Below are positions 4,258 through 20,370 of a stretch of DNA of 64,000 nucleotides, one piece after another (positions within the stretch are counted from its first letter, which is position 1; the number at the start of each line of letters is the position of its first letter). This DNA is from Halothiobacillus sp. Its GTDB lineage: Bacteria > Pseudomonadota > Gammaproteobacteria > JAAZVP01. The notes below the pieces were generated by a model. The model did no database searches and was not told where the DNA came from. It saw only the letters and a list, made by a program, of their open reading frames with translations. The stretch lies in assembly GCA_018623495.1 (NCBI GenBank), contig JAAZVP010000001.1:55991-119990 (forward strand). The letters are read 5' to 3'. The position numbers were made by a program, and so were the translations under genes.

Positions 4258-4342
4258 GCCCGGGTGGTGGAATCGGTAGACACACCGAACTTAAAATTCG
4301 GAGGCGCAAGCCGTGCGGGTTCAAGTCCCGCCCCGGGCACCA
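4258..4342 (+). tRNA. tRNA-Leu, anticodon TAA, type II with long variable arm, encoded CCA
   Basis: 7-bp acceptor stem GCCCGGG/CCCGGGC. Anticodon stem CCGAA/TTCGG with loop CTTAAAA. Variable-arm hairpin GGC..GCC. T-arm GCGGG-TTCAAGT-CCCGC. Ends ACCA. Coordinates ±1. Confidence 0.85.
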
Positions 4343-6646: not shown

Positions 6647-8068
6647 ATGGCGGTGGATCGGGGGCGGGTAAGGCGCATGCTGGACCCCGAGCGCCTGCGC
6701 ACCGGCGCCCGGCGCCTGGCCGACCGCCGGGTCCGCCTGGCGATCACCGGCCTGTCGCGCTCGGGCAAGTCGGTCTTCATCACCTCGCTGATCCAGCAGC
6801 TCACCCACGCCTCGGTGAGCACCAACCTGCCGTTTTTCCGGGTGGCCGCCGAGGGCCGCCTGCTGGGCGTCCAGCCCGGTGTGGCGCGTTCGCTGGACAT
6901 TCCCCGGTTTCCCTACGCCGAGGCGATCGCGCGGTTGTCGGCCGATCCGCCGGCGTGGCCGGAGCCGACCCGCGGCATCAGTGCCGTCGATCTCGCGCTG
7001 CATTTCCAGCCCCGGGGGTGGCTCGGGCGGATGACGTCCTCGGCGCGCCTGGACGTGGAGATCGTCGACTATCCCGGCGAGTGGTTGCTGGACCTGCCGT
7101 TGATGGACACGAGCTTTCGCGAGTGGTCGGAACAGGTGGGCCGGATGTGTGCGCGTCCCCCGCGGCGTGAACTGGCCGGTCCCTGGCTCGCGGCCCTCTC
7201 GGGGACCGACCTGGCCGGTCCGGCCGATGGCGCGGCCATCAAGGCGCTCGCCGGGCACTACACGGAATTTCTCCATGGCTGCCGGGAACCCGAGCATGGG
7301 CTCAGCCTGATCCAGCCGGGCCGGTTCGTGTTGCCCGGGGAGCTGGAGGGGGCACCACTGCTGGATTTCTGTCCCTGTCCCGGTGCGCCGGCCGATGAGG
7401 CCCTGCCACCCGACTGCCTCTTCCGGACCATGGAGCGCCACTTCGAGGCCTACAAGCGACACGTGGTCCGGCCTTTCTACGAGCGCTATTTCGCCCGCTT
7501 CGACCGCCAGATCGTGCTCGCGGACGTGCTTCGGCCGCTCAACCACGGGCCGGCCAGCTACGCCGACCTGCAGGAGGCCATCCAGACCGTCCTGGGGAGC
7601 TTTCGCTATGGTCGCGGGGGCTGGCTGTCGCGGGTCTTCCGGCCACGCATCGACCGCCTGCTGTTCGCGGCCACCAAGGCCGACCAGGTGACCCCCGACC
7701 AGTGGTCGCACCAGCGCGATTTCCTCCACCGCGTGGTCGCCCGCGCCGAGAACGAGATCCGCTGCCACGACGTGCAGACCGAGACGCTCTCGGTGGCCGC
7801 CCTGCGCTCCACCCGCAGCGGGCGGGTGGAGCGTGAGGGGCGCGAGATCCCCTGCCTGGTGGGTCTGGCCGAGCCGGACCGCCGGCCGGTACGGGTCTTT
7901 CCCGGCGAGATCCCCGGGCAGGTGCCCCCGGATTCAGAGTGGACGCCGGAGCGTTTCCACTTCATCCAGTTCGCCCCGCCCGAGATCCCCGACATCGAGG
8001 GCGAACCCCTGCCCCACGTGAGCATGGACCGGGCGCTGGAGTTCGTGCTGGGAGACAAGTTCGGATGA
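6647..8068 (+). CDS. ycjX: YcjX-like P-loop NTPase (DUF463 family)
   Basis: Collinear with E. coli YcjX. Walker A LAITGLSRSGKSVFITSL. Further matches: DPPAWPEPTRGIS, IVDYPGEWLLDLP, FDRQIVLADVL, LFAATKADQV, PLPHVSMDRALEFVLGDK. Alternative start at 6677. Confidence 0.85.
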   Translation: MAVDRGRVRRMLDPERLRTGARRLADRRVRLAITGLSRSGKSVFITSLIQQLTHASVSTNLPFFRVAAEGRLLGVQPGVARSLDIPRFPYAEAIARLSADPPAWPEPTRGISAVDLALHFQPRGWLGRMTSSARLDVEIVDYPGEWLLDLPLMDTSFREWSEQVGRMCARPPRRELAGPWLAALSGTDLAGPADGAAIKALAGHYTEFLHGCREPEHGLSLIQPGRFVLPGELEGAPLLDFCPCPGAPADEALPPDCLFRTMERHFEAYKRHVVRPFYERYFARFDRQIVLADVLRPLNHGPASYADLQEAIQTVLGSFRYGRGGWLSRVFRPRIDRLLFAATKADQVTPDQWSHQRDFLHRVVARAENEIRCHDVQTETLSVAALRSTRSGRVEREGREIPCLVGLAEPDRRPVRVFPGEIPGQVPPDSEWTPERFHFIQFAPPEIPDIEGEPLPHVSMDRALEFVLGDKFG

Positions 8069-9111
8069 CCGGCCCCGGCGACGACTGGCAAAGACCGTTC
8101 GAGGAGCCGCTCGGGGAGGGCGGGGCGGCCCGGGACGAGGCGCCGGGCTGGCGCCGGGCCGAGGCCATCCCCGAGGATGCCCCGATTCGTTTCGACGAGA
8201 CGCCCGAGACCTCGGCGCGCCCGGCCGGCCGGGCGCGCCGCAAGGGTCCCGCGGCCGGGCTCTGGTTCGTGGGGGGCTCGCTCGCCTTCCTGGTGCTCGC
8301 CGGGGCCTACGAGACCGTGGGCTTCACCGCCCGGGTCCTGCGCGAGGCACCGCCGGTGGGCCTGGTCCTGCTGACCCTTCTGGGACTGGCGCTGGCGGGA
8401 CTCGGGTTGCTGGTGACCCGCGAGATCCTGGCCCTGCGGCGACTGCGGCGGATTCTGCGCCTCCACGAGGCGGTGGCGCGGCGGCGGGCGTCCCACGAGG
8501 CCGGGGCGGCCATCGCCCTGGCCGAGTCCATCGCCGACGACCTGCAAGAGACCCCCGAGCTCGCCGGCCGCCGCAGCCGGTTTCGCGACAGTTGCGCGGA
8601 GACCCACTCGGGCGAGGAGGTGTTCACCCTGTTCTCCCGCGAGGTACTGGCCGGCGTGGACCGGGACGCGGCCCGGATCGTGCGTTCCGGTGCCCGCCAG
8701 ACCGGCGTGGCGGTGGCGGTGAGCCCGCTGGTCGTGGTCGATGTGGGCTTCGCCCTCTGGCGCACCCTCAGGATGGTTCGCGAGATCGCCGCCCTCTACG
8801 GCGCCCGCCCGGGGATGGCGGGGACGCTGCGCCTGCTCCGCGAGATCGCCGCGAGCCTGCTCTACTCGGGGGTGAGCGAGATGCTCGCCGACATCGGCGC
8901 CGGTTCGCTGGCGCCGCTGGTGTCGCGCCGGCTGGCCCAGGGCTTCGGCGCGGGCCTGTTCACCGCGCGCGTCGGGGTGCGGGCGATGGCGCTCTGCCGG
9001 CCCGTGCCCTTCGCCCCCGGCGAGGCGCCCCGGGTGCGCGACATCGCCGGGGCCGTGCGCCGCGACCTGCGCGATATCCGGGCCGGCGAGGCGAACGAAC
9101 GCCCCGGTTGA
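8065..9111 (+). CDS. ycjF: YcjF-like inner-membrane protein (DUF697/TIGR01620)
   Basis: ATGA overlap with the ycjX stop. Two TM helices. Conserved C-terminal block IAVSPLVVVDVGFALWRTLRMVREIAALYG...GAGLFTARVGVRAMALCRPVPF matches E. coli YcjF. Confidence 0.85.
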   Translation: MTGPGDDWQRPFEEPLGEGGAARDEAPGWRRAEAIPEDAPIRFDETPETSARPAGRARRKGPAAGLWFVGGSLAFLVLAGAYETVGFTARVLREAPPVGLVLLTLLGLALAGLGLLVTREILALRRLRRILRLHEAVARRRASHEAGAAIALAESIADDLQETPELAGRRSRFRDSCAETHSGEEVFTLFSREVLAGVDRDAARIVRSGARQTGVAVAVSPLVVVDVGFALWRTLRMVREIAALYGARPGMAGTLRLLREIAASLLYSGVSEMLADIGAGSLAPLVSRRLAQGFGAGLFTARVGVRAMALCRPVPFAPGEAPRVRDIAGAVRRDLRDIRAGEANERPG

Positions 9112-9152
9112 CCGTCACCCGGCGGACATCCGTTTGGGCTAGATTGGAAGGC

Positions 9153-12100
9153 ATGATGCCCGCCGAACACCCCGATCCCGCGCCGGCGACAGGTGCCCGC
9201 GTGCGACCCGTGCACACCCGGGTCCCCGGGCGGGCACGTATCGAGGTCGCCGGGTTGCGACGCGATCCGGCCCGCTGCCGGCGCCTCGAGCGCCGGCTGG
9301 AGCAATGGGCCATCGTCCGCGCGGTGCGCGCCAATCCGCTCACCGGGCGGATCCTGGTGCACTTCGATCCGGACCAGCCTCTCGACGCGGTGACCGCGGC
9401 GGTGGGATGGGTCGCCGGGGAACTGGGTCTGCCCGGCGGGGCCGGTCCCGAGCCGTGGCATCCCGGGCCCGCCGACCCGTCGGGGGCGTCGGGCGGGGAG
9501 GGGGAGGTGCCCGTCGCCGAGCCCTGGCATGGTCGCACGCTGGCCGAGGTCCGCGAGGCACTCGGTCCGGGCAGCGCCGAGGGCCTGGACCATGCCGAGG
9601 CCATGGCCCGGCTGACCCGCTTCGGTCCCAACCGCCTGGAGGCGGTCCGTCAGCGCTCGCACCTGGCGATCCTGGGCGAGCAGTTCACCACCCTGCCGGT
9701 CGCCATGCTGGGGGCCTCCGCGGTGATTTCCCTGGCCACGGGCGGCATCGTGGACGCCGTGGTGATCCTCGGCGTGGTCCTGATCAACGCCGCCATCGGT
9801 TTTGTCACCGAGCGCCAGGCGGAACGTACCATCCGGGGTCTCGGCCGGGTGCCGCCGCGCCCGGTGCGGTTGCGGCGCGAAGGGGTCGTCCAGGAGATCC
9901 CGGCCGCGGAGGTGGTCCCCGGCGATCTCGTGCTGCTGGCACCGGGGACCCACGTCCCCGCCGACATGCGCCTGTTGGAGAGCAAGCGCCTGAGCGTCGA
10001 CGAGTCGCCGCTGACCGGCGAGAGCCTGCCGTCGGAGAAGACGGCGGACGCCGTTCTCGATGCCGAGACGCCGCTGGCCGAGCGCCGCAACATGGTCTAC
10101 ATGGGCACGGTGGTCACCGGCGGCAGCGGGCTCGGCCTGGTCACCGGGACCGGCGCCGACACCGAGATCGGTGCCATCCAGTCGCTGGTGGCCGGGGCGC
10201 GTCCCCCCGAGACGCCCATGCAGCGACAGCTCGAGGGGCTCGGCACCCGGCTGGGGGTGTTGAGCGGGGCGGTCTGTGCCGGCGTCTTCGTCATCGGCCT
10301 GCTGCGCGGCCAGGGCCTGTTCGCCATGCTCAAGAGCTCGGTGTCCCTGGCGGTGGCCGCGGTCCCCGAGGGCCTGCCCGCGGTGGCCACCACCACCCTC
10401 GCGCTGGGCATCCAGAACATGCGCAAGCACCGGGTGGCGATCCGCCGGCTGGACGCGGTCGAGACCCTGGGTTCGGTGCAGGTCTTCTGCATGGACAAGA
10501 CCGGCACCCTGACCCTCAACCGCATGACGGCGGTGGCGATCCACACCGACGCGCGGCTGCGGGTCGCCGATGGCGAGATCCGGTCGGGCGACCGGCCCGT
10601 GGAGGTGGCCGGGGCGCCGGCGGTGCAGGGCCTGTTGGAGGTGGTCAGCCTGTGTTCCGAGACCGAGCTGGAAGGCCCCGAGGACGCGCCGGTACTGGCC
10701 GGTTCGCCGACCGAGAACGCCATGGTCCGGCTGGCGCTCGAGGCCGGTATCGACGTGCGCGCGTTGCGCCGTGACCGGCCCCGGCGGAAGGTGGTCTACC
10801 GGGCCGAAGGCCGGCCCTACATGCGCACCGTGCACGAGTTGCCCGATGGCGGGCTGCTGGCGGCGGTCAAGGGGAGCCCGGCGGAGGTGCTGGAGATGTG
10901 CGCCACGGAGCTGGTCGACGGCGAGATTCGCGAGCTGGACGCGTCGCGCCGCGACGCCATCCTGCAGGAGAACGAGGCCATGGCGGGCGACGCGCTGCGG
11001 GTGCTGGGCGCCGCCCGCGGGGTGGTGACCGGGGTGGAGGATTCCGGGCGCGGGCAGCTGACGTGGCTGGGCATGGTGGGCATGGCCGACCCGCTGCGCA
11101 CCGGGATGGCCGACCTGGTCGCCGTCTACCACCGCGCGGGGGTCGACACGGTGATGATCACCGGCGACCAGAGCTCGACCGCCTATTCCATCGGCAGCCA
11201 GCTCGGGCTCTCCCGGGACCGTGCCCTGAGGATCATGGACTCCACCCACCTGGAGAAGGTGGAGCCCGAGCTGCTGGCGGGGCTGGTTCGCGACGTGCAC
11301 GTCTTCTCCCGGGTGAGCCCGGCCCACAAGCTCGAGATCGTGCGGGCCTTCCAGGAATCCGGCAGGGTGGTGGCGATGACCGGTGACGGGGTCAACGACG
11401 GCCCGGCCCTCAAGGCCGCCGACATCGGGGTGGCCATGGGGCAGGGCGGGACCGACGTGGCCCGGGAGATGGCCGACGTGGTCCTCGAGGACGACAACCT
11501 GCAGACCATGACCGTGGCCATCCGCCAGGGCCGGGCGATCTACGACAACATCCGCAAGACCATCCACTTCCTGCTGTCCACCAACTTCAGCGAGATCGAG
11601 CTGATGGCGGCCAGCCTGGCGCTGGGCCTGGGCCAGCCCCTCAACCCCATGCAGCTGCTGTGGATCAACCTGATCACCGACATCTTCCCCGGGCTCGCCC
11701 TGTCCATGGAGCCGGCCGAGCCCGCCATCATGGAGCGCGAGCCGCGCGACCTGGACGAGCCCATCATCCGCGGGCGCGACCTGGGGCGGATGGGGCTGGA
11801 GTCGGTGTGGATCACCGGCGGGGCGCTGGCCACCTACGTCTACGCCCTGCGACGCTACGGCCCGGGACCGCGGGCCACCACGCACGCCTTCACCACCATC
11901 ACGCTGGCCCAATTGCTGCACGCCGTGAGCTGCCGGTCGACCCGCCACAGCGTGTTCAGCCGCGAGCGGCTGCCGGCCAACCGGGCCCTGCGCTGGGCGC
12001 TGGGCGGGTCGCTGGCGGTCCAGGGGGCGGCCATCGCCGTCCCGCCCCTGCGGCGCCTGCTGGGCAACACCCCCCTGGGACCGGTGGACCTGGGGGTGGT

Positions 12101-12215
12101 GGCCGCGGGCACCCTGCTGCCCTTCGTGGTCAACGAGGCCGGCAAGCACGTCCGCTCCCGGCGCGGGGGGACGCTGCCGGCACTGGCGCAACCGGAAAAG
12201 GAGACCCAGGGATGA
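9153..12215 (+). CDS. P2-type (Ca2+/Na+/Mg2+-class, non-heavy-metal) cation-transporting P-type ATPase with an N-terminal degenerate HMA-like extension
   Basis: 1020 aa from the Met after a GGAAGG ribosome-binding site. The upstream part of the 1207-aa ORF overlaps ycjF in another frame and is rejected. Cation_ATPase_N motif MARLTRFGPNRLE. TGES motif. TM4 PEGLP (not the CPC of heavy-metal pumps). Phosphorylation site DKTGTLT. Hinge MTGDGVNDGPALKAADIGVAMG. The N-terminal ~100 aa carry the same PGRxRxxV...RLERxL...ANPxTGxxLV domain as the two downstream small proteins. Confidence 0.9.
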   Translation: MMPAEHPDPAPATGARVRPVHTRVPGRARIEVAGLRRDPARCRRLERRLEQWAIVRAVRANPLTGRILVHFDPDQPLDAVTAAVGWVAGELGLPGGAGPEPWHPGPADPSGASGGEGEVPVAEPWHGRTLAEVREALGPGSAEGLDHAEAMARLTRFGPNRLEAVRQRSHLAILGEQFTTLPVAMLGASAVISLATGGIVDAVVILGVVLINAAIGFVTERQAERTIRGLGRVPPRPVRLRREGVVQEIPAAEVVPGDLVLLAPGTHVPADMRLLESKRLSVDESPLTGESLPSEKTADAVLDAETPLAERRNMVYMGTVVTGGSGLGLVTGTGADTEIGAIQSLVAGARPPETPMQRQLEGLGTRLGVLSGAVCAGVFVIGLLRGQGLFAMLKSSVSLAVAAVPEGLPAVATTTLALGIQNMRKHRVAIRRLDAVETLGSVQVFCMDKTGTLTLNRMTAVAIHTDARLRVADGEIRSGDRPVEVAGAPAVQGLLEVVSLCSETELEGPEDAPVLAGSPTENAMVRLALEAGIDVRALRRDRPRRKVVYRAEGRPYMRTVHELPDGGLLAAVKGSPAEVLEMCATELVDGEIRELDASRRDAILQENEAMAGDALRVLGAARGVVTGVEDSGRGQLTWLGMVGMADPLRTGMADLVAVYHRAGVDTVMITGDQSSTAYSIGSQLGLSRDRALRIMDSTHLEKVEPELLAGLVRDVHVFSRVSPAHKLEIVRAFQESGRVVAMTGDGVNDGPALKAADIGVAMGQGGTDVAREMADVVLEDDNLQTMTVAIRQGRAIYDNIRKTIHFLLSTNFSEIELMAASLALGLGQPLNPMQLLWINLITDIFPGLALSMEPAEPAIMEREPRDLDEPIIRGRDLGRMGLESVWITGGALATYVYALRRYGPGPRATTHAFTTITLAQLLHAVSCRSTRHSVFSRERLPANRALRWALGGSLAVQGAAIAVPPLRRLLGNTPLGPVDLGVVAAGTLLPFVVNEAGKHVRSRRGGTLPALAQPEKETQG

Positions 12216-13399
12216 CCTGCGACTTCGTCTTCACGTCCGATTCGGTGACCGAAGGCCACCCGGACAAGCTCTGCGACCAGATCTCCGATGCCATCATCGA
12301 CGCCTACCTGAGCCGTGATCGCGAGGCCGAGGTGATCGCCGAGTCGGCCGTGGCCAACGGGGTGGTCTTCATCTCCAACCGCTTCGTGTCCTCGGCCCGC
12401 GTGGACGTGGCGGAGGTGGCGCGCCGGGTGATCGCGGACGCCGGCTACGCCGATCGCGACGGCTTCAACGCCGAGGAATGCACCATCCTCACCAGCAGCC
12501 AGGACCTGGCCGCGGCCCGGGGGCCCCGGCCGGTCGCCCCGGCGCCGGAGGCGCTGGAGCGGATCGTCGCCGGCAACCAGGTCAACAGCTTCGGCTTTGC
12601 CTGTCGCCAGAGCGAGACCCTGATGCCCCTGCCGATCCACCTTGCCCACGGGTTGTGTCGGGGCATGGACGAGGCGCGGCGGGGCGGTGCGCTGGACTAC
12701 CTGCGCTCGGACGGCCAGGTCCAGGTGGGCATCGAGTACGCCGACGGTCGGCCCCGCCGTATCAGCGGCATCACCGTCCTGGCCAGCCATGCCGAGGGCC
12801 GTGCCGTCGGCAACGACCGCATGCGCGACGACCTCTTCGAGGCGGTGATCGAACCGGTGCTGGCGGACGCCGGTATCGCCTTCGACCGGCGCTCGTTCTT
12901 CCACCTCAATCCCTTCGGCCCCATCGCCGGCGGTGGCCCCGACCTCCATTCCGGCCTGACCGGGCGCAAGAACGGCATCGACAACTACGGCGAGTATTCC
13001 CGTCACGGCGGGGCCGCGCTGAGCGGCAAGGATCCGCTGCGCATCGACCGGGTGGGCAGCTACATGGCCCGCTATGCCGCCAAGAACGTGGTGGCCGCCG
13101 GCCTCGCGGAGCAGTGCGAGGTGCACCTGGGTTACGGCATCGGGCAGGCCGGACCGGTGAGCGTGCGCGTCCAGACCTTCGGGACCGGCGAGCTGGCGGA
13201 AGAGGCGATCAAGGGGCGCCTGACGGAGGCCTTCGACTTTCGTCTCGGCGCCATCATCCACGACCTGCGCCTGCGCGAGTGGCCCGCCCACCAGGCGGGG
13301 CGCGGCTTCCGCCAGCTGGCGACCTACGGCCACATGGGCCGCGAGGACCTGCGCCTGCCCTGGGAACGTACCGACCGGGTGGACGCCCTGCGCGGCTGA
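12212..13399 (+). CDS. Divergent S-adenosylmethionine synthetase (MetK-family) paralogue
   Basis: ATGA overlap with the ATPase stop. Collinear with MetK over its full length (FTSDSVTEGHPDKLCDQISDAIIDAYL...GLTGRK...GGAALSGKDPLRIDRVGSYMARYAAKNVVAAGLAEQCEV...TFGT). Canonical motifs are altered: GAGDQG to AGNQVN, GGGAFSGKD to GGAALSGKD, DTYGG to DNYGE. Confidence 0.8.
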   Translation: MTCDFVFTSDSVTEGHPDKLCDQISDAIIDAYLSRDREAEVIAESAVANGVVFISNRFVSSARVDVAEVARRVIADAGYADRDGFNAEECTILTSSQDLAAARGPRPVAPAPEALERIVAGNQVNSFGFACRQSETLMPLPIHLAHGLCRGMDEARRGGALDYLRSDGQVQVGIEYADGRPRRISGITVLASHAEGRAVGNDRMRDDLFEAVIEPVLADAGIAFDRRSFFHLNPFGPIAGGGPDLHSGLTGRKNGIDNYGEYSRHGGAALSGKDPLRIDRVGSYMARYAAKNVVAAGLAEQCEVHLGYGIGQAGPVSVRVQTFGTGELAEEAIKGRLTEAFDFRLGAIIHDLRLREWPAHQAGRGFRQLATYGHMGREDLRLPWERTDRVDALRG

Positions 13400-13474
13400 G
13401 CCGAGCGCCGTCGGGGCGGGCGGTTCCGGGAGGCGGGTCGCGCCGGCTGCCGGCCGGGCCCGGACCCGGCGGGT

Positions 13475-13954
13475 TCAGCGCCGGCGGTCGAGCAGGAGTT
13501 CCAGCGCGTACCACACCAGCGAGATGCCGGGGGCCATTACCCGGCCCTTGGCGATCTGGCGGATGCCGGCCAGCAAGAGGGCCAGGAACAACAGGCTGCG
13601 GATGTCCGCCGCCCCGCGGCTGGCCCGGAACAGGCGGGCGTCGACCGCCTCCAGGAGTTGCCCGGGGATGGCCAGCAACTGCGCCTCGTCGATGACCGGC
13701 TCCGGGCCCAGCTCGAACAGCCCCGTCTCCCGGCCGCGGGCCTCCAGGGCGTCCATCACCTCGCCCCGGTGGCAGACGAGGACGCTGCCCGTGCGCGGGT
13801 TGGCCTCCAGGCGCGTCACTCCCTCGATTCCCGCCAGGCCGCGTTCCAGGCGCGCGAAATAGGTCGCGTCGCCCCTCGACCCGGGGATCCGGATGCGGAT
13901 GCGGCCGGGCGCCCGGTGGCTGACGAAGGCGCGGGGCAGGGGTTCAGCGGTCAT
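13475..13954 (-). CDS. Degenerate (cysteine-less) HMA-like domain protein with a C-terminal TM anchor
   Basis: 159 aa. The N-terminal domain HRAPGRIRIRIPGSRGDATYFARLERGLAGIEGVTRLEANPRTGSVLVCH is homologous to the ATPase N-terminus and to the 14319..14624 gene. A C-terminal hydrophobic segment (IRSLLFLALLLAGIRQI) and an amphipathic tail (LVWYALELLL) are present. Confidence 0.6.
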   Translation of the reverse strand: MTAEPLPRAFVSHRAPGRIRIRIPGSRGDATYFARLERGLAGIEGVTRLEANPRTGSVLVCHRGEVMDALEARGRETGLFELGPEPVIDEAQLLAIPGQLLEAVDARLFRASRGAADIRSLLFLALLLAGIRQIAKGRVMAPGISLVWYALELLLDRRR

Positions 13955-14270
13955 CCGGCCTGCCGGTGGTGTCCGTTTCCGGGGCGGCGGGCTCGTCCGC
14001 CGCGGGCTCGGCGGCCTCGGGCCGGTGGGCGGACTCGTCGATTTCGGCGCGTGCCTCGGCGACGAGGTCCTCGAACACCTCGCCCATCTCGGCCACGGTC
14101 TCCTGGCCCTTGTCGTAGAGCACCAGGCCGGCCTTGATGGCGGCCCGCGCCGCGGGCCGGCCGTAGGTGGAGGCGGCCGCCAGTGCCAGCGGCGCCGCGG
14201 CCGCCACCCCGAGGCCGATCACCACGCCCCGGGTGGTGCCGCTCTTGAGAATGTCGTCGATCTTGGCCAT
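13944..14270 (-). CDS. Small membrane-associated protein (DUF5132-like: N-terminal hydrophobic/amphipathic segment, acidic proline-rich tail)
   Basis: 108 aa: MAKIDDILKSGTTRGVVIGLGVAAAAPLALAAA...AIKAGLVLYDKGQETVAEMGEVFEDLVAEARAEI followed by an acidic E/P/A-rich tail. Overlaps the downstream gene by 11 nt. Confidence 0.5.
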   Translation of the reverse strand: MAKIDDILKSGTTRGVVIGLGVAAAAPLALAAASTYGRPAARAAIKAGLVLYDKGQETVAEMGEVFEDLVAEARAEIDESAHRPEAAEPAADEPAAPETDTTGRPDDR

Positions 14271-14318
14271 GAATGGGTTTCCCGGAGGTCTGCGTCCGTC
14301 GCCACGGGGCCCGGCGGG

Positions 14319-14624
14319 TCAGCCCCTGGTGTGTTTGAGGGCCCGCTCCCGCCAGGGCCCGATGTCGAGATCGGGGAAGAGCGAGCCCAGGGTGTCGAAC
14401 ATCTCGTCGACGGCTTCGCGGTCTTTCAGTGCCCCGAGCCTGTACTTGAGCAGCACCTTGCCGTCGTCGGGTTTCACGGTGACGTCCTTGACGCCCCGGA
14501 CCGCGCCGATCTCGCGTTCGACGCGAGCGGCGAAATCCGGGTCGTCCTTCACCCGGTCGACGCGCAGGTGCAGGCGGCCGGGGAAGAAGGAGAGGACCTT
14601 GACGCCGTCGATATCCAGGTTCAT
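14319..14624 (-). CDS. Stand-alone degenerate HMA-like domain protein
   Basis: 101 aa taken from the internal Met of a 306-aa antisense-extended ORF. VLSFFPGRLHLRVDRVKDDPDFAARVEREIGAVRGVKDVTVKPDDGKVLLKY matches the domain in the ATPase N-terminus and in the 13475..13954 gene. Confidence 0.55.
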   Translation of the reverse strand: MNLDIDGVKVLSFFPGRLHLRVDRVKDDPDFAARVEREIGAVRGVKDVTVKPDDGKVLLKYRLGALKDREAVDEMFDTLGSLFPDLDIGPWRERALKHTRG

Positions 14625-14850
14625 CGGTGCCCGTCTTTCCGTTCGGTTGCGAGGATGGGTCTGCGGGACCGGTCGCCGGCGGACATGCCTCCCGACCCCG
14701 TCGTCTACGATCATTCTAGCAGCTGCCCGCCGCCAACAGCCGGACGGATGGGGTCCCTCGCGGGGCCGGTTTCGCCGGTGGCGTGGTGTAAGCTGGGAGA
14801 AGGGCGGCACGACCCCGATGCCCGCGTCCGAAAGAGGAGGAAACCGGCCG

Positions 14851-15669
14851 ATGAGTGTCCCGGAAACGACCTTGCCCGTCCCCGGCGCGATCGCACCCGT
14901 CGACATGGAGGATCTCGCGCGCGCCCACCATTTCCTCGAGCATCCCAGCCTGGCCGCGCGGATCACCAACGTCGTGGGCACGCCGGTGGAGGCCTCCATC
15001 CGGCTCCTGCCGGAGGCCTGGTACGACCGCCTCCAGCGCCTGGCGGAATCCAGCGTGGACCGTGCGCTGGCCACCGCGGTCGCCAGCCTGGGCCGGCGCG
15101 CCGAGGGGCCCCCGCGCAACGGCGTGCACAAGACCCTGGGCATGGTCTCGGGCGCGGCCGGCGGGATGTTCGGGCTGGCCTCCTGGGCACTGGAGGTCCC
15201 CTTGATCACCACCATCGTGCTGCGTTCCATCGCCGACATCGCCCACAGCCAGGGCGAGGACCTCGCCGACCCCGAGGCGCAGGTGGCCTGCGTCCAGGTC
15301 TTCGCCTTCGGCGCCCGTTCGCACGCCGACGATGCCGCCGAGACCGGCTACTACGGGGTTCGGCTGGCGCTGGCGCTGAGCGTGCAGCACGCCGTGCACC
15401 ACATCGCCCGTCATGGACTCAAGGGCGAGGCAGCGCCGGTGCTGGTGTCGCTGATCCAGGCCATTTCCGCGCGCTTCGGCGTGGTCCTGTCGCAGAAGGC
15501 GGCGATGCAGACGGTGCCTCTCATCGGTGCCCTGGGCGGGGTCACCATCAACACCATCTTCATGCAGCACTTCCAGGACACGGCCTGGGGGCATTTCACC
15601 GTTCGCCGCCTGGAGCGCAAGTACGGCGAGGCCGTCGTCCGCGGGGCCTACACGGCCCTCGGCCGCTAG
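14851..15669 (+). CDS. EcsC-family protein
   Basis: 272 aa with an AAGAGGAGG ribosome-binding site. Matches the EcsC family (PF12787) along its length (LARAHHFLEHPSLAARITNVVG...LEVPLITTIVLRSIADIAHSQGEDL...HGLKGEAAP...VPLIGALGGVTINTIFM). Confidence 0.7.
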   Translation: MSVPETTLPVPGAIAPVDMEDLARAHHFLEHPSLAARITNVVGTPVEASIRLLPEAWYDRLQRLAESSVDRALATAVASLGRRAEGPPRNGVHKTLGMVSGAAGGMFGLASWALEVPLITTIVLRSIADIAHSQGEDLADPEAQVACVQVFAFGARSHADDAAETGYYGVRLALALSVQHAVHHIARHGLKGEAAPVLVSLIQAISARFGVVLSQKAAMQTVPLIGALGGVTINTIFMQHFQDTAWGHFTVRRLERKYGEAVVRGAYTALGR

Positions 15670-15938
15670 GCGCGGAAGCCGGTGTCGAGGTCCTGCTCGG
15701 CGGCCAGCCAGTCGTTCTCGGGTGAACCGTCGCCTGGTTGGCGCTCGAGCGACCGGAAGTAGGCCGCCTCGCGGATCCGTGCGTCGCGTTCGCCCTGGAT
15801 CCGCTGGACGTGTGCCGCCAGCTGCTCGACCGAGTCGCCGAGACCCGTGTCGCCGGCATTCGCTTCGAGCCGGTCGACGCGCTCGGCGAGCCGGTCGATT
15901 TCCTCTTTGAGGACCTTCATCGTCAGTCGTTGCGCCAT
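15666..15938 (-). CDS. DUF2934-like small coiled-coil protein
   Basis: 90 aa with an AGGAGG ribosome-binding site. N-terminal coiled coil. C-terminal motif RIREAAYFRSLERQPGDGSPENDWLAAEQDL. Its stop shares CTAG with the ecsC stop (convergent). Confidence 0.55.
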   Translation of the reverse strand: MAQRLTMKVLKEEIDRLAERVDRLEANAGDTGLGDSVEQLAAHVQRIQGERDARIREAAYFRSLERQPGDGSPENDWLAAEQDLDTGFRA

Positions 15939-16174
15939 CTTTTCCTCCTGTACCGGGAAACCCCGGCCGATTCGGTCGGTGACCCTTCCCGGAGCCGCCC
16001 GGGCGACCCGCCCGAACGCGGTGCTCCAGGATCACTCTATAGCAATAACAGCGGATTATGACGTTACGGTCACGCGCTCGCGGGGTCTGCATCGGGGCCG
16101 GCAGACGGTATCATCCGGGGTCCGGCGCCGCTTCCCGGCGCTCCGTCCCACAGCCAACGAGGTATCAGCGATCC

Positions 16175-16660
16175 ATGAAGCCAGTCAGCGTGCTGTTCAT
16201 CTGCCTGGGCAACATCTGCCGTTCGCCCACCGCCGAGGCCGTGTTCACCAAGCTGGTGGACGAGGCCGGGTTCGGTGAAGCCATCCGCATCGACTCGGCG
16301 GGGACCGCCGGCTTCCACGTCGGCGCCCGGCCGGACGATCGCGCCCGGGAGACCGCCCGGAGTCGCGGGATCGCGATGGATCACCTGCGTGCCCGGCAGT
16401 TCATCCCGGAGGATGCCGAGGCCTTCGATTACCTGCTGACCATGGACCGCTCCAACTACGAGCAGGTGATGGCCCAGTGCCCACCGGCGATGCAGGAGCG
16501 GGTCCACATGTTCCTCGACTTCGCCCCCGAGGTGGCCGAGACCGAGGTGCCCGATCCCTATTATGGCGGGCCCGAGGGTTTCGAGAACGTCTTCGACATG
16601 GTCGAGGCCGCCTCGCGCGGGCTGCTCGACGACATCCGCTCCCGCCACGGGCTGGGTTAG
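16175..16660 (+). CDS. Low-molecular-weight protein-tyrosine phosphatase
   Basis: 161 aa. P-loop CLGNICRSP (CX5R). Conserved DSAG and DPYYGG motifs. Confidence 0.85.
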   Translation: MKPVSVLFICLGNICRSPTAEAVFTKLVDEAGFGEAIRIDSAGTAGFHVGARPDDRARETARSRGIAMDHLRARQFIPEDAEAFDYLLTMDRSNYEQVMAQCPPAMQERVHMFLDFAPEVAETEVPDPYYGGPEGFENVFDMVEAASRGLLDDIRSRHGLG

Positions 16661-17124: not shown

Positions 17125-19917
17125 TCAGCCGCCCGATTTCTCCTCGGGCCTTTCCGCCTCCGGTTGCCGTTCCGTCTCCTCTCCGGTCGGGGGCGCGTCC
17201 TGCCCGCGCTCACCGGCCGCCGGCAGGGATTGGGCCTCGCTCGCGTCCGCGCGGGCCGGCTCGGCCTCGTCGGTGACGGGCGCCTCCGGTGCGGCCCCGC
17301 TGTCGGGCTCCCCGGGAGCGGGCGCCTCGGTCTCGCCCGCTTCGGTCGCGGTCCCGGTCTCGGCAGCCGGTTCGCTCCCCTCGGCGGTCTCACCGCCGGA
17401 CCCCGCCCGCGGTGGCTCGGCCCGGGCCACGGGTTCGTCCTCCGATCCGGTCTCGGCGGCCGGGCCATCGTCCGGTTCGCCGGCCGGCGTGGCCGGTTCC
17501 TCCGGTTTCGCCGCCGTCTCCGCCTTCGCCCCGGGCGCCCCGGTCTTGCCGGTGTCGGCACCGGCGGAGCCGCCGCCGGGTTGCGGCTGCGCGGTATCCG
17601 GGTTCGCGGGCGCGGCGGCCTCGTCGCCCGTCGCCTTGTCGCCGGTGTCCTCCCGCGCCGTGTCGTCGCCGATGATGCGGTCACCCGGTTCGGGCTTGAT
17701 GGCGGCGTTGGGCGGCAGGTGACCGACCACGTTCGGCTTGAACATGTCGTCGGCGGTCAGCTTGGGGGCCGCGGGCCTGGGTTCGGGCCGGGCCTTCTTC
17801 TCGGCCTTGGCCGGCTCGGGCGCCGGTTCCTTCTCCTCGGGGGCGGCCACGTCCGCCGGCTTGGGCTTGTCCGCCAGCCCGGGCTTGGGGCCGATCGGCC
17901 GGGGCGGCGGCGTGGGCCGGGTCGCGGGCCGGCCGGGCGAACCGTCGCCCCGGTCTTCCTTGCTCTCCTTGGCTTCCTTGCGTGGCCGGGTGTCCTTCTG
18001 CGGCTTCTTGTCCCCCCGGGCGCCGTTGTCCTGGCCCTTGCCCCGGTTGCCACCGCGCTTGCCCCCGCGCCGGCGCGACTTGCCGTTGCGCCCCTGGGGC
18101 CGGGCACGGGATTCCTCGCGTTCGCCCGGCTCCCGCCTGGGCTCCTCGGTCCGGGGGGCGGGCTTGGCCGGCTGGATGGGCTCCTCTTCCGGCTCGGGCG
18201 CGAACAGGCTGTCCCAGATGCGCTTGAGCAGGCCGGGGCCGGCGGGCTTCTCGGCGGGGGGTGCGACGGGCTTGTCCGCCTTGGGTTCGGCCGCTTCGGG
18301 GGCCGGTGCCGGGGCCGGGGCCGGGGGGGTGACGGCCTTGACCGCCGGCTCTTCGGGTCCCGGTCGCCGCTGCTCTTCCTCGGGCTGGTAGACCGGGTGT
18401 TCCATGGCCTGGACCAGGGTATGGGGGCGGATGGCCTGGAGTTCGTTCACCCGGATGCGCTCGAGCTCGTAGTGGGGCGTCTCCAGGTTGGGGTTGGGCA
18501 CCAGGATCACCTGCACCGAGTGGCGTTGCTGGATCTCGTTGATCTCGGGACGCTTCTCGTTGAGCAGGTAGGTGGCCACGTCCACCGGCAGCTGGCCGGT
18601 CACGCGACCGGTCTTCTCCTTCATGGCCTCTTCCTCGATCAGGCGCAGGATCGAGAGGGAGAGCGACTCGGTCTCGCGGATGGTGCCCTGGCCGGAGCAG
18701 CGCGGGCAGACCACCTGGCTGGACTCGCCCAGCGAGGGACGCAGGCGCTGGCGCGACATCTCCAGCAGGCCGAAGCGGGAGATGCGGCCCACCTGTACCC
18801 GCGCCCGGTCCATCTTGAGGGCCTCGCGCAGGCGGTTCTCCACCTCGCGCTGGTGGCGGTTGGGCATCATGTCGATGAAGTCGATCACGATCAGCCCGCC
18901 CAGGTCGCGCAGGCGCAGCTGACGGGCAACCTCGTCGGCGGCCTCGAGGTTGGTGTTGAGCGCGGTCTCCTCGATGTCGGCACCGCGGGTGTTGCGCCCC
19001 GAGTTGATGTCCACCGCGGTCAGTGCCTCGGTGTGGTCGAAGACCAGGGCGCCGCCCGAGGGCAGTTCCACCTCGCGCTGGAAGGCGCTCTCGATCTGGC
19101 TCTCGATCTGGTAGCGGGAGAACAGCGGGATGCGGTCCTCGTAGCGCTTGAGCTTGGGCAGCGCCTGGGGCATGACCCGCTGGAGGAAGTCGGTCGCGGT
19201 GGCGTAGACCTCCGGGTCGTCGATCAGGATCTCGCCGATGTCGGCACGCAGGTAGTCGCGCAGGGCGCGGATGATGACGTTGCTTTCCTGGTAGACCAGG
19301 AAGGGCCCTTCGCGCTCGTCGCTGGCCGCCCGGATGGCATTCCACACCTGCAGCAGGTAGTCGAGATCCCACTGCAGCTCCTCGGCGCTGCGGCCGACGC
19401 CGGCCGTGCGCACGATCAGGCCCATGCCGTCGGGCACCTCGAGCTCGGCGAGGGCCTGCTTGACCATCGAGCGGTCCTCGCCCTCGATGCGCCGCGAGAC
19501 CCCGCCGGCCCGGGGGTTGTTGGGCATCAGGACCAAGTAGCGTCCGGCCAGGCTGATGAAGGTGGTGAGCGCCGCGCCCTTGGTGCCCCGTTCTTCCTTG
19601 TCGACCTGGACCAGGATCTCCTGGCCTTCCTTGATGGCCTGCTTGAGGATCAGCTTGCCGTTGTCGTCGACCGCGTCGGGGTCGAAGTAGCTACGGGCGA
19701 TCTCCTTGAAGGGCAGAAAGCCGTGGCGTTCGGCACCGAAGTTGACGAAGGCCGCCTCCAGGCTGGGTTCGACCCGGGTGATCAGGCCCTTGTAGATGTT
19801 GGATTTCTTCTGTTCCCGGGACGGGGTCTCGATGTCGATATCGTAGAGCTTTTGCCCGTCGACTAGGGCGACGCGCAACTCCTCGGGGTGAGTTGCGTTG
19901 ATCAACATGCGTTTCAT
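17125..19917 (-). CDS. rne: Ribonuclease E
   Basis: The N-terminus [44 protein letters not shown] matches E. coli RNase E almost residue for residue. Catalytic domain, then the Arg/Pro/Glu-rich low-complexity C-terminal scaffold. The ORF is open to 19977 but the start is taken at MKRM. Confidence 0.93.
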
Positions 19918-20370
19918 AGGGGAGTTCTCTTGCCCGATTGAGGGCCAGTCGCGCCGGCGCCGCGGGAAGCGGGCCATGCACCCGGGTCGCCGTGAGGCTC
20001 ATCAACGCCGGGAACAGCAACCACCCGTCGGAGAGATTGGCGAAGATCGCGCGGATGTCGGCAAGCGGCATGACTGGCGTCCGTGTTTGCGAAAGGGTTT
20101 CGGGCCGCCTTGGGGCGGCCGGCCGCGGCCTCCCGGCCGCGGGGATACTGTTGGGTCACGTGCGCCGATGGCGCTGGCGTGGTTTGGCTCGTGCTCTCGG
20201 GAGACCGAAGCGCGCTCCCGTCGCCCGCTCGCCCTTGCCGGGCGGCCGTGTTGAGAGGTTTCGACGAGCGTCTTCCGCGAACGTTCCCGGAGCGGGCACG
20301 CGCAAGTGCCAGACGCAATGCGGGCGATTTGCCAATATAACAATGTTGTCATGGGCCTTCAATTTGCCCG
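19918..20370 (-). promoter_or_regulatory. rne 5' leader (about 450 nt, long structured leader; autoregulatory rne5-type element expected) plus the divergent rne/rluC promoter region
   Basis: A long non-coding stretch upstream of rne and divergent to rluC, as in E. coli. An AT-rich patch TTGCCAATATAACAATGTTGTCATGG sits at about 20326–20352. Confidence 0.5.

Follow-up and report, generated by a model that had tools for sequence, protein, structure and literature searches.

The window, a stretch of 64,000 nucleotides, carries a P2-type cation ATPase gene, a divergent S-adenosylmethionine-synthetase (MetK) paralog and three small genes on the opposite strand. The four open reading frames reported for the ATPase and the small genes in a preliminary description stood as given, and public annotation places the ATPase start at 9156. 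The MetK paralog had been missed in that description. The features are as follows.

9153..12215, forward strand: P2-type cation ATPase, 1020 aa (Pfam, NCBIfam)
9201..9422, forward strand: CoBaHMA domain of the pump, residues 17-90, 'VHTRVPGRARIEV...ANPLTGRILVHF' (HMA_2, family HMM)
12212..13399, forward strand: divergent MetK paralog (gene calls, PDB match)
13475..13954, reverse strand: CoBaHMA plus helical/TM-hairpin protein, 159 aa, FezC-like architecture (HMA_2, AF2, Foldseek)
13709..13933, reverse strand: CoBaHMA domain of the 159-aa protein, residues 8-82
13487..13603, reverse strand: hairpin helices of the 159-aa protein, residues 118-156
13944..14270, reverse strand: DUF5132 protein, 108 aa (Pfam DUF5132, 44.7 bits)
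14319..14624, reverse strand: stand-alone soluble CoBaHMA protein, 101 aa (HMA_2, family HMM)
14421..14603, reverse strand: CoBaHMA domain of the 101-aa protein, residues 8-68
14851..15669, forward strand: EcsC-family protein (Pfam EcsC, E 7e-27)

Three copies of the CoBaHMA domain

The ATPase N-terminus and two of the small proteins had been described as sharing an HMA-like domain without a CxxC motif, and our searches agreed. In pairwise BLASTP comparisons, the ATPase N-terminus matched the 159-aa protein (E 2e-7, 46% identity over 50 aa) and the 101-aa protein (E 2e-5), and the two small proteins matched each other (E 4e-9). All three matched Pfam HMA_2 (PF19991), for which the cutoff is 30 bits: the 159-aa protein scored 59.4 bits with a full-length match, above the cutoff, and the ATPase N-terminus (27.7 bits, E 3e-6) and the 101-aa protein (23.7 bits, E 5e-5) fell below it. 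The 101-aa protein also matched the classical HMA profile of Pfam (E 4e-3). A family HMM built by iteration on 87 loci recovered the ATPase N-terminus, the 159-aa protein and the 101-aa protein with E-values of 1e-20, 6e-22 and 4e-15, respectively. The Pfam names HMA_2 and DUF5132, which had been proposed earlier, were borne out by the profile searches.

The three segments are copies of CoBaHMA (Pfam HMA_2), an arginine-rich, cysteine-less module of ferredoxin fold that has an added β0 strand and bears a conserved stripe of His/Arg/Arg/Lys. That the domain already bears this name had been overlooked. Gaschignard et al. 2024 (Proteins) reportedly also deals with the CoBaHMA domain family. The family was defined on calcyanin N-termini and is known both as single-domain proteins and as fusions to membrane proteins; its members have a ferredoxin-like HMA fold, an extra His-bearing β0 strand and conserved basic β1 residues, and lack CxxC (Benzerara et al. 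2022, PMC8890360). The window copies agree with the family in fold, in the basic β1 residues (GRxRx[K/R]) and in the absence of CxxC from all three; the β0 His is present except in the atypical 101-aa copy, in which it is replaced by Ser and β1 reads 'GRLHLRV'. Across related copies, R14 and R16 were invariant and K/R18 was frequent, and CxxC was found in 0/82, 1/54 and 0/44 of 180 related domain copies. Metal carriage by the small proteins is unlikely, as had been argued, because they have no Cys site.

The proposed HMA/MerP-like ferredoxin fold was recovered in AF2 models of the 159-aa protein and the ATPase. The 159-aa model (pLDDT 93.4) showed the order β0-β1-α1-β2-β3-α2 followed by three helices, and its top Foldseek matches in the PDB were MerP, the PacS N-domain, CopZ and plant HMA domains, with target TM-scores of 0.64-0.76, rmsd of ~2 Å and E-values of only 0.01-0.1. 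In the full ATPase model (mean pLDDT 78.7), residues 17-90 formed the same fold with pLDDT 83-92 (β17-21, β27-32, α39-50, β55-61, β66-71, α77-90), and the linker residues 96-119 were disordered (pLDDT <50). G26, R27 and R29 of the pump were near-invariant in 31 homologues.

A P2-type pump and its neighbours

The pump has a CoBaHMA domain at its N-terminus, joined through a flexible linker to a standard Cation_ATPase_N / E1-E2 / HAD / Cation_ATPase_C body (Pfam, NCBIfam). Its motifs include PEGLP in M4 (E406), DKTGT (D448), STNFSEIE in M5 and NLITD in M6; neither a CPC motif nor the P1B-6 motifs that define FezB were found in its sequence. The closest PDB relatives were the P2A Ca2+-ATPases SPCA1 (518 bits), LMCA1 (443) and SERCA (381), with which the pump shares PEGLP, DKTGT and equivalents of N768, E771, N796, T799 and D800. 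It differs from them in a ~125-residue N-terminal CoBaHMA extension and in a Gln at the position of E908, and it scored under every NCBIfam equivalog cutoff. Judged by these motifs and relatives, the pump is P2-type, P2A-like and Ca2+-pump-like rather than a heavy-metal P1B ATPase, in line with the earlier assignment.

The MetK paralog starts within the ATPase gene, overlapping its stop by 4 nt, and its top PDB match was 7r3b (307 bits). Its family carries D238->H in 74/74 members and K269->R in 73/74, with an altered GAGDQG motif.

The middle small gene was confirmed as DUF5132 and shares 11 nt with the CoBaHMA-TM gene downstream of it, as first described. Its product begins with a hydrophobic helix containing GxxxG ('GVVIGLGVAAAAP'), continues into an acidic helix whose residues E61, E64, D68, E72 and E76 were at least 90% conserved among 62 homologues, and ends in an acidic, disordered tail. 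The acidic stripe is complementary in charge to the basic CoBaHMA residues (R14, R16, K/R18). The EcsC gene, divergent from the small-gene operon, recurred in 8/80 of the loci described below (seven from Gammaproteobacteria and one from an unclassified Pseudomonadota MAG) and is possibly a lineage-specific accessory gene.

Conservation of the gene cluster

One test named in the preliminary description was co-conservation of the small genes with this ATPase subfamily. We examined the best 80 pump loci, from 80 genomes in at least seven phylum-level groups (Gammaproteobacteria, Nitrospirota, Desulfobacterota, Cyanobacteria and others), and conservation was strong for both the small genes and the MetK paralog. 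The pump carried an N-terminal CoBaHMA domain in 77/80 loci. The MetK paralog was its most constant partner, following it in 73/80 loci and in 46 of the 47 loci of at least 15 kb. DUF5132 lay within 10 kb of the pump in 60/80 loci, the CoBaHMA plus two-helix hairpin protein was present in 49/80, with fusions in a further eight, and the soluble CoBaHMA protein in 30/80. In related loci, 49/53 CoBaHMA-TM genes had DUF5132 directly upstream; seven cyanobacterial loci encoded natural fusions of DUF5132 with the hairpin portion of CoBaHMA-TM, and a full-length fusion of the two occurred in one deltaproteobacterial locus.

A profile search with the 159-aa protein retrieved 589 representatives of clusters formed at 50% identity (E<=1e-30), and a reverse start from CoBaHMA-TM proteins led to a CoBaHMA-ATPase in six of seven neighbourhoods. 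The small-protein trio was also found beside P2 pumps with DUF445 (three loci) and beside a 645-aa short ATPase (one locus). About a quarter of the loci, such as that of Methylococcus capsulatus and those of several cyanobacteria, had no DUF5132 gene within 10 kb; hence the pump can occur with no partner next to it. A suspected actinobacterial link between HMA_2, DUF5132 and the ATPase did not appear in the best 80 loci.

That the similarity reflects chance or composition in a 70% GC genome, or that the small ORFs are spurious, as many are at high GC, would accord with two of three Pfam scores lying under the gathering cutoff, but it is ruled out by cross-phylum conservation, with pairwise E-values down to 4e-9 and signature-bearing orthologues in the same gene order in low-GC Nitrospirota and Cyanobacteria.

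A possible docking platform and its precedents

We consider it somewhat probable that these genes form an accessory module around a P2A-type, Ca2+-pump-like ATPase, in which docking between DUF5132 and CoBaHMA builds a membrane platform, a reading that draws on analogy with the systems compared below. The module would comprise five genes: the pump, DUF5132 as a single-pass membrane protein, the CoBaHMA plus hairpin protein, the soluble CoBaHMA protein and the MetK paralog. The GxxxG helix of DUF5132 may mediate its self-association within the membrane, and the conserved acidic helix may dock on the basic side of CoBaHMA. This docking domain is common to pump, hairpin protein and soluble protein, which would for that reason be recruited to one platform or compete for it; the platform could stabilise, localise or gate the pump. 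For PacL-CtpC of mycobacteria, such logic has been demonstrated by experiment. Several points speak against this reading: about a quarter of the loci have no DUF5132 gene within 10 kb of the pump, the pump is without the FezB-defining P1B-6 motifs, homology between DUF5132 and PacL is not supported, the soluble copy in the window lacks the β0 His, and the literature hypothesis is that CoBaHMA binds anionic lipids, not an acidic protein helix (10.64898/2025.12.07.689555).

The small proteins had earlier been seen as regulatory or autoinhibitory partners of the pump. The N-terminal CoBaHMA would then inhibit or regulate a Ca2+/cation efflux pump of the plasma membrane, and the free CoBaHMA proteins would be competing decoys or activators, as in CopZ/CopA but without metal transfer. 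The ~30-residue flexible tether, often seen in regulatory N-domains of P-type ATPases, the domain shared by pump and partners and the lack of a Cys metal site all accord with this proposal, which nevertheless leaves the near-obligate DUF5132, the membrane hairpin and the DUF5132-hairpin fusions unexplained, and nothing predicts that the N-domain docks to any of the A, N and P domains. We regard it as unlikely; a scaffold or assembly role fits the evidence at least as well. The two proposals are partly compatible and do not exclude each other.

To a similar degree, we doubt that the genes are a ferrosome-like kit whose pump fills a membrane-bounded granule inside the cell with Ca2+ or another cation, for which Ca-polyphosphate and amorphous Ca-carbonate granules are candidates. 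The four-part architecture matches FezA/B/C/D, the trio adjoins ccyA and cax in iACC-forming Microcystis, and carriers of the cluster include Methylococcaceae and Chlorogloeopsis, with Ca- and P-rich inclusions in C. fritschii. Some loci neighbour Na_Ca_ex (10 loci), Pst/PhoU, ppk/ppx or PHA_gran_rgn, and coat or curvature elements could be supplied by the short-helix hairpin and by a conserved protein of 22-residue repeats (36/80 loci). However, ccyA lay within 10 kb of the pump in 0/80 loci, the repeat protein is absent from the window, and PacL is a precedent for such modules acting in the plasma membrane.

Slightly less probable again is that the basic patch binds anionic lipids and that the three CoBaHMA proteins are co-targeted without contacting each other or DUF5132. 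The conserved basic stripe and the lipid hypothesis in the literature favour this, and every partner is, or could be, membrane-associated. Against it, the tight coupling of the DUF5132 gene, the fusions and the acidic stripe together suggest a protein partner, and the N-terminal part of CtpC, R-rich per Grant et al., has the PacL1 Glu/Ala segment as its ligand (PMC9374683).

Several known systems resemble the platform that we favour. The parallel drawn earlier with CopZ/CopA holds formally, in that the same fold occurs on the pump N-terminus and in a free small protein encoded nearby. In contrast to CopZ/CopA, the window set lacks CxxC and gives no hint of metal transfer, its pump is not P1B and its extra membrane partners have no CopZ counterpart; FezB/FezC/FezD with FezA and PacL-CtpC are closer precedents. 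In Microcystis aeruginosa PCC 7806, the same three small-protein types (DUF5132, CoBaHMA and CoBaHMA-hairpin, the hairpin there DUF454-like) lie next to one another and adjoin ccyA and cax, with which they are co-expressed (10.1101/2024.07.07.602159). Calcyanin and a Ca2+/H+ exchanger are found there, whereas the window has a P-type ATPase and a MetK paralog.

Ferrosomes are iron-storage organelles. Once purified, they show the strongest enrichment for FezB, FezC and FezA, and their formation requires FezB and FezC. An N-terminal RxRxR motif is common to FezB, FezC, CtpC and the soluble Fez proteins; FezC joins an HMA domain to two TM helices, and the N-terminus of FezA is hydrophobic and contains GxxxG (10.1101/2020.01.10.902569). 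The part list of the fez clusters (RxRxR pump, HMA plus 2-TM protein, soluble motif protein, small GxxxG protein) agrees with that of the window, a likeness drawn from published descriptions of Fez proteins and not from alignment. FezB is an iron-gene-linked P1B-6 ATPase (D[Y/F]SCA, HNxxT), unlike the P2A-like window pump, which has no iron context.

In Mycobacterium tuberculosis, PacL1 combines a GxxG-containing TM segment with Glu/Ala repeats and a tail that is disordered. It binds the N-terminal domain of its pump, at CtpC residues 1-85; pump abundance depends on it, and it gathers the pumps in foci (PMC9374683, PMC13043812). Like PacL, the window DUF5132 is a small protein with an N-terminal TM Gly motif, an acidic helix and a disordered tail, encoded beside a P-type ATPase, but it has no metal motif. 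In HMM searches of the 62 DUF5132 members, one gave a weak DUF1490 match (E 0.088) and none matched DUF6110; in Actinobacteria, the analogous DUF1490/PacL system takes the place of the DUF5132 one. The CoBaHMA papers covered do not report three copies of the domain around a P2-type pump that has DUF5132 and a MetK paralog beside it; the domain is already known, and its module on a Ca-type P2 pump with a MetK paralog appears to be undescribed. By these comparisons, we infer that the module is analogous to FezA/B/C/D of ferrosomes and to the PacL-CtpC "effluxosomes".

Gene layout and the three CoBaHMA copies

In the window, whose GC content is about 70%, the cluster consists of a P-type ATPase gene and a MetK-like gene on the plus strand, towards which an operon of three small minus-strand genes converges. 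The ATPase and the small proteins were placed by ORF coordinates and translation and the MetK-like gene by gene calls, and the gene calls for the contig were identical in public metagenome assemblies. Judged by its RNase E gene and the best homologues, the DNA comes from a gammaproteobacterium with relatives in Thioalkalivibrio and the Chromatiales. The genes of the region are as follows.

6647..8068, plus strand: YcjX-like (DUF463) gene, upstream of the ATPase
about 8065..9111, plus strand: YcjF-like (DUF697) gene, directly upstream of the ATPase
9153..12215, plus strand: P-type ATPase of 1020 aa with an N-terminal CoBaHMA domain (the pump)
12212..13399, plus strand: MetK-like gene (the MetK paralog), whose start overlaps the ATPase stop by 4 nt
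13475..13954, minus strand: 159-aa CoBaHMA-hairpin protein (CoBaHMA-TM)
13944..14270, minus strand: 108-aa DUF5132 protein
14319..14624, minus strand: 101-aa soluble CoBaHMA protein
14851..15669, plus strand: EcsC-family gene adjoining the small-gene operon
15666..15938, minus strand: DUF2934 gene adjoining the small-gene operon

The middle gene of the small operon had been called DUF5132-like; a Pfam search assigned it to DUF5132, and its 11-nt overlap with the 159-aa gene is present. No YcjX-like or YcjF-like gene was seen beside the pump in any other locus inspected. An EcsC gene lies beside the cluster in 8 of 80 related loci (seven from Gammaproteobacteria and one from an unclassified Pseudomonadota MAG). 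The RNase E gene (17125..19977, minus strand) has a very long C-terminal region rich in Pro, Glu, and Ala, and the strand opposite it carries several long spurious ORFs, typical of 70% GC DNA. A tRNA gene (4258..4339, plus strand) was the sole Rfam match at gathering score in the window, with no riboswitch or other Rfam element there, including ahead of the ATPase and the MetK paralog. The stretch 8800..16200 yielded no consensus promoter, and its one terminator-like site (15883..15898, plus strand) was no better than those of shuffled sequences.

The preliminary description had proposed that one Cys-less HMA-like domain occurs three times, in the ATPase N-terminus and in the 159-aa and 101-aa proteins. 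Pairwise BLASTP among the three segments gave E values of 2e-7, 2e-5, and 4e-9. The Pfam model HMA_2 (PF19991) matched the 159-aa protein over its whole length with 59.4 bits, passing the 30-bit gathering cutoff, and matched the pump N-terminus (27.7 bits) and the 101-aa protein (23.7 bits) just under this cutoff; the 101-aa protein also matched classical HMA in the Pfam search. With a profile iterated on related loci, the three copies reached E values of 1e-20, 6e-22, and 4e-15. The HMA-like identity therefore stands, and it was incomplete in one respect: the domain is already published. PF19991 is CoBaHMA (Conserved Basic residues HMA), first found in the N-terminus of calcyanin, the protein that marks cyanobacteria forming amorphous calcium carbonate inside the cell, and it is defined by a His-bearing β0 strand and basic residues in β1 and β2, without metal-binding cysteines (PMC8890360).

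These features were counted in 180 collected domain copies (82 from pumps, 54 from hairpin proteins, 44 from soluble proteins). The β0 His was present in 80/82, 53/54, and 38/44 copies, respectively, and the two Arg of GRxRx[K/R] (R14, R16) in 100% of pump and hairpin copies and about 92% of soluble ones. A CxxC motif was found in a single hairpin copy (1/54) and in no pump (0/82) or soluble (0/44) copy, and it is absent from all three window copies. In the window, β1 reads GRARIEV in the pump, GRIRIRI in the 159-aa protein, and GRLHLRV in the 101-aa protein, which is slightly degenerate and has Ser in place of the β0 His.

An AlphaFold2 model of the 159-aa protein, based on an alignment of 76 sequences drawn from database proteins, had a pLDDT of 93.4 and the order β0-β1-α1-β2-β3-α2, after which come one long helix and two helices of 18 residues each that pair as a hairpin. 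Its best Foldseek matches in the PDB were MerP, the PacS N-domain, CopZ, and plant HMA domains, with rmsd of about 2 Å and target TM-scores of 0.64–0.76 at E values no better than 0.01–0.1. In the AlphaFold2 model of the whole pump, residues 17–90 take the same fold, and a disordered linker connects them to the pump body; β0 was modelled at residues 17–21 of the pump and 8–15 of the 159-aa protein. The models thus predict an HMA-type ferredoxin-like core in both proteins, and the 101-aa copy is assigned the same putative core by homology. The hairpin family is not huge, with 589 matches at E ≤ 1e-30 and 7167 at E ≤ 1e-3 in a profile search of 1.84 billion 50%-identity representatives. CoBaHMA is reported both as a stand-alone single domain and as part of membrane proteins that serve transport and lipid metabolism, and Gaschignard et al. 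(2024) are said to propose that they bind anionic lipids, an idea also quoted in one further literature source.

Conservation across related loci

With one genome taken per species, we obtained 80 loci, in which the components were identified by local profile searches of all ORFs. The loci came from Gammaproteobacteria (Chromatiaceae, Methylococcaceae), Nitrosospira, Thiobacillus, Nitrospirota/Thermodesulfovibrionia, Desulfobacterota, Cyanobacteria, Binatia, and Myxococcota. Single loci are named below by an L number and have coordinates of their own.

Occurrence of the components in all 80 loci and in the 47 loci of at least 15 kb
CoBaHMA domain on the pump: 77/80, with 2 more as a split ORF; 45/47
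DUF5132 within 10 kb of the pump: 60/80; 39/47
CoBaHMA-hairpin protein: 49/80 plus 8 fusions; 33/47 plus 6 fusions
Soluble CoBaHMA protein: 30/80; 23/47
MetK paralog: 73/80; 46/47

A lack of co-conservation between the small genes and the ATPase subfamily had been set beforehand as a refutation test of the preliminary description, which passed it, with co-conservation found for both DUF5132 (60/80) and the hairpin protein (49/80). The small partners were not visible near the pump in about a quarter of the loci. When the hairpin protein was taken as the starting point, 6 of 7 neighbourhoods contained a CoBaHMA-ATPase. The observation is real and non-random, and chance or an ORF artefact is ruled out because the cluster is conserved across phyla.

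The DUF5132 gene was immediately upstream of the CoBaHMA-hairpin gene in 49 of 53 cases. Seven cyanobacterial loci encode a fusion of DUF5132 with only the C-terminal helical/hairpin half of the CoBaHMA-TM protein, the CoBaHMA domain being absent (L037:9264-9836, L033:9312-9890, L042:856-1371, L055:9434-10018, L063:9071-9646, L078:9435-9959, L086:7249-7884), and one deltaproteobacterial locus encodes a fusion of DUF5132 with the whole protein (L040:8992-9840). The DUF5132-hairpin fusions therefore provide a Rosetta-stone argument for joint action of the two.

The trio of small proteins was also found beside P2 pumps with a DUF445 gene replacing MetK (L004, L087, and the Microvirga plasmid L091). 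In this variant (L004, L087/L088, L091), DUF5132 and the CoBaHMA-hairpin protein, the latter with a duplicated hairpin, are each present once or twice beside a CoBaHMA-P2 ATPase and a DUF445 membrane protein, and a MetK paralog is absent. L091 is located at 1185–1191 kb of plasmid pMVF16-1 of Microvirga sp. VF16 and is unannotated in PLSDB; this megaplasmid was the sole result of a tblastn search of plasmids, and local HMMs showed the same module there. In L089 (2762-10750) and L090, downstream of ppx and ppk1, DUF5132 and a CoBaHMA-hairpin protein accompany a short P-type ATPase of 645 aa with an N-terminal CoBaHMA and an additional soluble CoBaHMA protein, which is the same accessory module on another pump type, adjoining polyphosphate genes. 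A CPC-type P1B ATPase whose N-terminal CoBaHMA reads RRIRLR adjoins the P2 cluster in L030 (6397-8589, minus strand), and the tag is therefore common to heavy-metal-type and Ca-type pumps in one locus.

A protein of ~200 aa, rich in Gly, Ala, and Val and containing a 22-residue repeat with an alternating hydrophobic pattern, was present in 36 of the 80 loci and absent from the window. It lies between the hairpin gene and the pump, for example in L022 (1207-1896, plus strand), L016 (9257-9985), and L017 (952-1686), has no Pfam match, and could be a coat or filament component of the same system. Other recurrent neighbours among the 80 loci were Na_Ca_ex exchangers (10 loci), DUF3562 (11), a zinc-ribbon protein (13), PHA_gran_rgn (7), and Pst/PhoU genes (4–7). 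Several of these are of the sort expected near ion- or granule-handling systems, which is not proof of such a role.

The P2-type pump and the MetK paralog

The pump body was confirmed as a P2-type ATPase, with PEGLP in M4 (E406) and DKTGT, and its closest solved relatives were human SPCA1 (518 bits), Listeria LMCA1 (443 bits), and SERCA (381 bits). Unlike SPCA1, the pump retains SERCA-type ligands of both Ca2+ sites (N811/E814 in M5 and N839/T842/D843 in M6), and the M8 glutamate E908 of SERCA is replaced by Gln in an alignment inspected by eye; the SERCA reference numbering is that of the established SERCA structures. The NCBIfam PMR1-type and SERCA-type models scored 630 bits (cutoff 798) and 493 bits (cutoff 703), and every NCBIfam equivalog cutoff was above the score of the pump. 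A Ca2+-like cation as its substrate is therefore a reasonable guess and nothing more. Homologues of the pump number in the thousands, and PF19991 is annotated at the N-terminus of most of the best 120.

The MetK paralog is the most constant neighbour of the pump, and its start lies at most 20 nt from the pump stop codon in 45 of 75 pairs. It aligns with canonical MetK from end to end (E 1e-90 to 7r3b), and the paralogs form a separate group, with 43–59% identity across phyla, that lacks the canonical residue set D118/D238/K269. In E. coli numbering, the equivalent of D238 is His in 74/74 paralogs, K269 is Arg in 73/74, and D118 is Asn, Gln, or His in most, while the GAGDQG loop has become [PT][AV][KR][NQDH]Q[VA]T. 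Residues that bind the triphosphate and metal are conserved (HPDK, D163, R244/K245, K265, D271). According to Taylor and Markham, D118, D238, and K269 reportedly matter more for methionine binding and SAM formation than for tripolyphosphate hydrolysis; given the changes at these residues, an altered substrate or a triphosphatase-like role is conceivable from the sequences. No link between MetK and an ATPase was found in the literature searched. Always adjacent to the pump and with Asp invariably replaced by His at a position that binds substrate, the MetK paralog poses an enzymological puzzle by itself.

Proposed assembly and comparison with known systems

The acidic stripe of DUF5132 (E61, E64, D68, E72, E76) lies on one helical face, is at least 90% conserved among 62 homologues, and is complementary in charge to the invariant Arg stripe of CoBaHMA. 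We propose that DUF5132 may oligomerise in the membrane and that its acidic helix would bind the basic face of CoBaHMA domains. Through this docking domain, the pump, the hairpin protein, and the soluble protein could assemble into one platform or compete for it, and the platform might stabilise, localise, or gate the pump. If this docking model is true, CoBaHMA gains a concrete ligand, DUF5132 gains a function, and a genetic handle is obtained on the organisation of bacterial Ca2+ pumping and possibly on Ca-rich inclusions.

The closest analogies are with the Fez and PacL systems and not, as the preliminary description had suggested, with the copper chaperone CopZ and its pump CopA, where both partners carry a CxxC metal site that the window copies lack; a metal-chaperone role was rejected because no Cys site is present. 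In purified ferrosomes of Desulfovibrio magneticus, FezB, FezC, and FezA were the most enriched proteins, and FezB and FezC are required for ferrosome formation (10.1101/2020.01.10.902569). An N-terminal "R-rich" RxRxR motif occurs in FezB homologues and related P1B pumps, including CtpC of M. tuberculosis, as well as in FezC, which has an HMA annotation and two TM helices, and in soluble Fez proteins; the hydrophobic N-terminus of FezA-type proteins contains GxxxG (10.1101/2020.01.10.902569). Compared with the published descriptions of these proteins, the window has the full set of parts: GRxRx[K/R] is present on the pump, on an HMA protein with a hairpin, and on a soluble protein, and the small protein in the place of FezA is DUF5132, with GVVIGLG. 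However, FezB is a P1B-6 pump (D[Y/F]SCA in M4, HNxxT in M6), whereas the window pump is P2 (PEGLP). D[YF]SCA together with DKTG was found in no ORF of any locus, and strictly speaking the cluster is therefore no fez cluster; Fur and Feo were not seen among the recurrent neighbour families of the loci.

In PacL1 (DUF1490), the N-terminal TM segment carries a GxxG groove, Glu/Ala repeats bind residues 1–85 of CtpC, and the tail is disordered; pump abundance depends on PacL1, which also brings several pumps together in membrane foci, and the related DUF6110 proteins accompany P1B-6 pumps (PMC9374683, PMC13043812). DUF5132 resembles PacL in its TM segment with a Gly motif, acidic Glu/Ala helix, disordered tail, and position near a P-ATPase, with CtpC taken here from its published description. 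Homology was unsupported by the Pfam searches, which gave one DUF1490 match (E 0.088) and no DUF6110 match among the 62 DUF5132 homologues. In Microcystis, DUF5132, a single-domain CoBaHMA protein, and a CoBaHMA protein with a DUF454-like hairpin adjoin ccyA and a Ca2+/H+ exchanger and are co-expressed with both (10.1101/2024.07.07.602159). A search up to 10 kb from each of the 80 pumps found no calcyanin-like GlyZip protein, and a direct ccyA link was rejected for these loci.

A wider reading, which we consider unlikely, is that the cluster encodes a ferrosome-like, membrane-bounded cation-storage compartment loaded by the SERCA/SPCA-like pump, in other words a widespread bacterial "calcium granule" kit. 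DUF5132 would then be a FezA/PacL-type scaffold and the CoBaHMA-hairpin protein a membrane-shaping or anchoring component, CoBaHMA would act as a common address tag, as on calcyanin of amorphous-calcium-carbonate-forming cyanobacteria, and the His-substituted MetK paralog might supply some chemistry for the compartment.

No paper in the literature searched joins the Fez, PacL-CtpC, and Microcystis lines, or any of them with a P2 pump or MetK, and the module in the form seen here, built around a P2 pump of Ca type and joined by a MetK paralog, seems to be undescribed. The finding ties three young fields and is directly testable. Together, ferrosome organelles, PacL "effluxosomes", and calcyanin CoBaHMA in carbonate biomineralisation appear to draw on one common module, in which a P-type pump and its partners carry an Arg-rich HMA-like tag and are accompanied by a small membrane protein with GxxxG and an acidic helix. 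In the window, this module is attached to a P2 pump of calcium type, and conservation of the cluster reaches from Gammaproteobacteria to Cyanobacteria and Nitrospirota.
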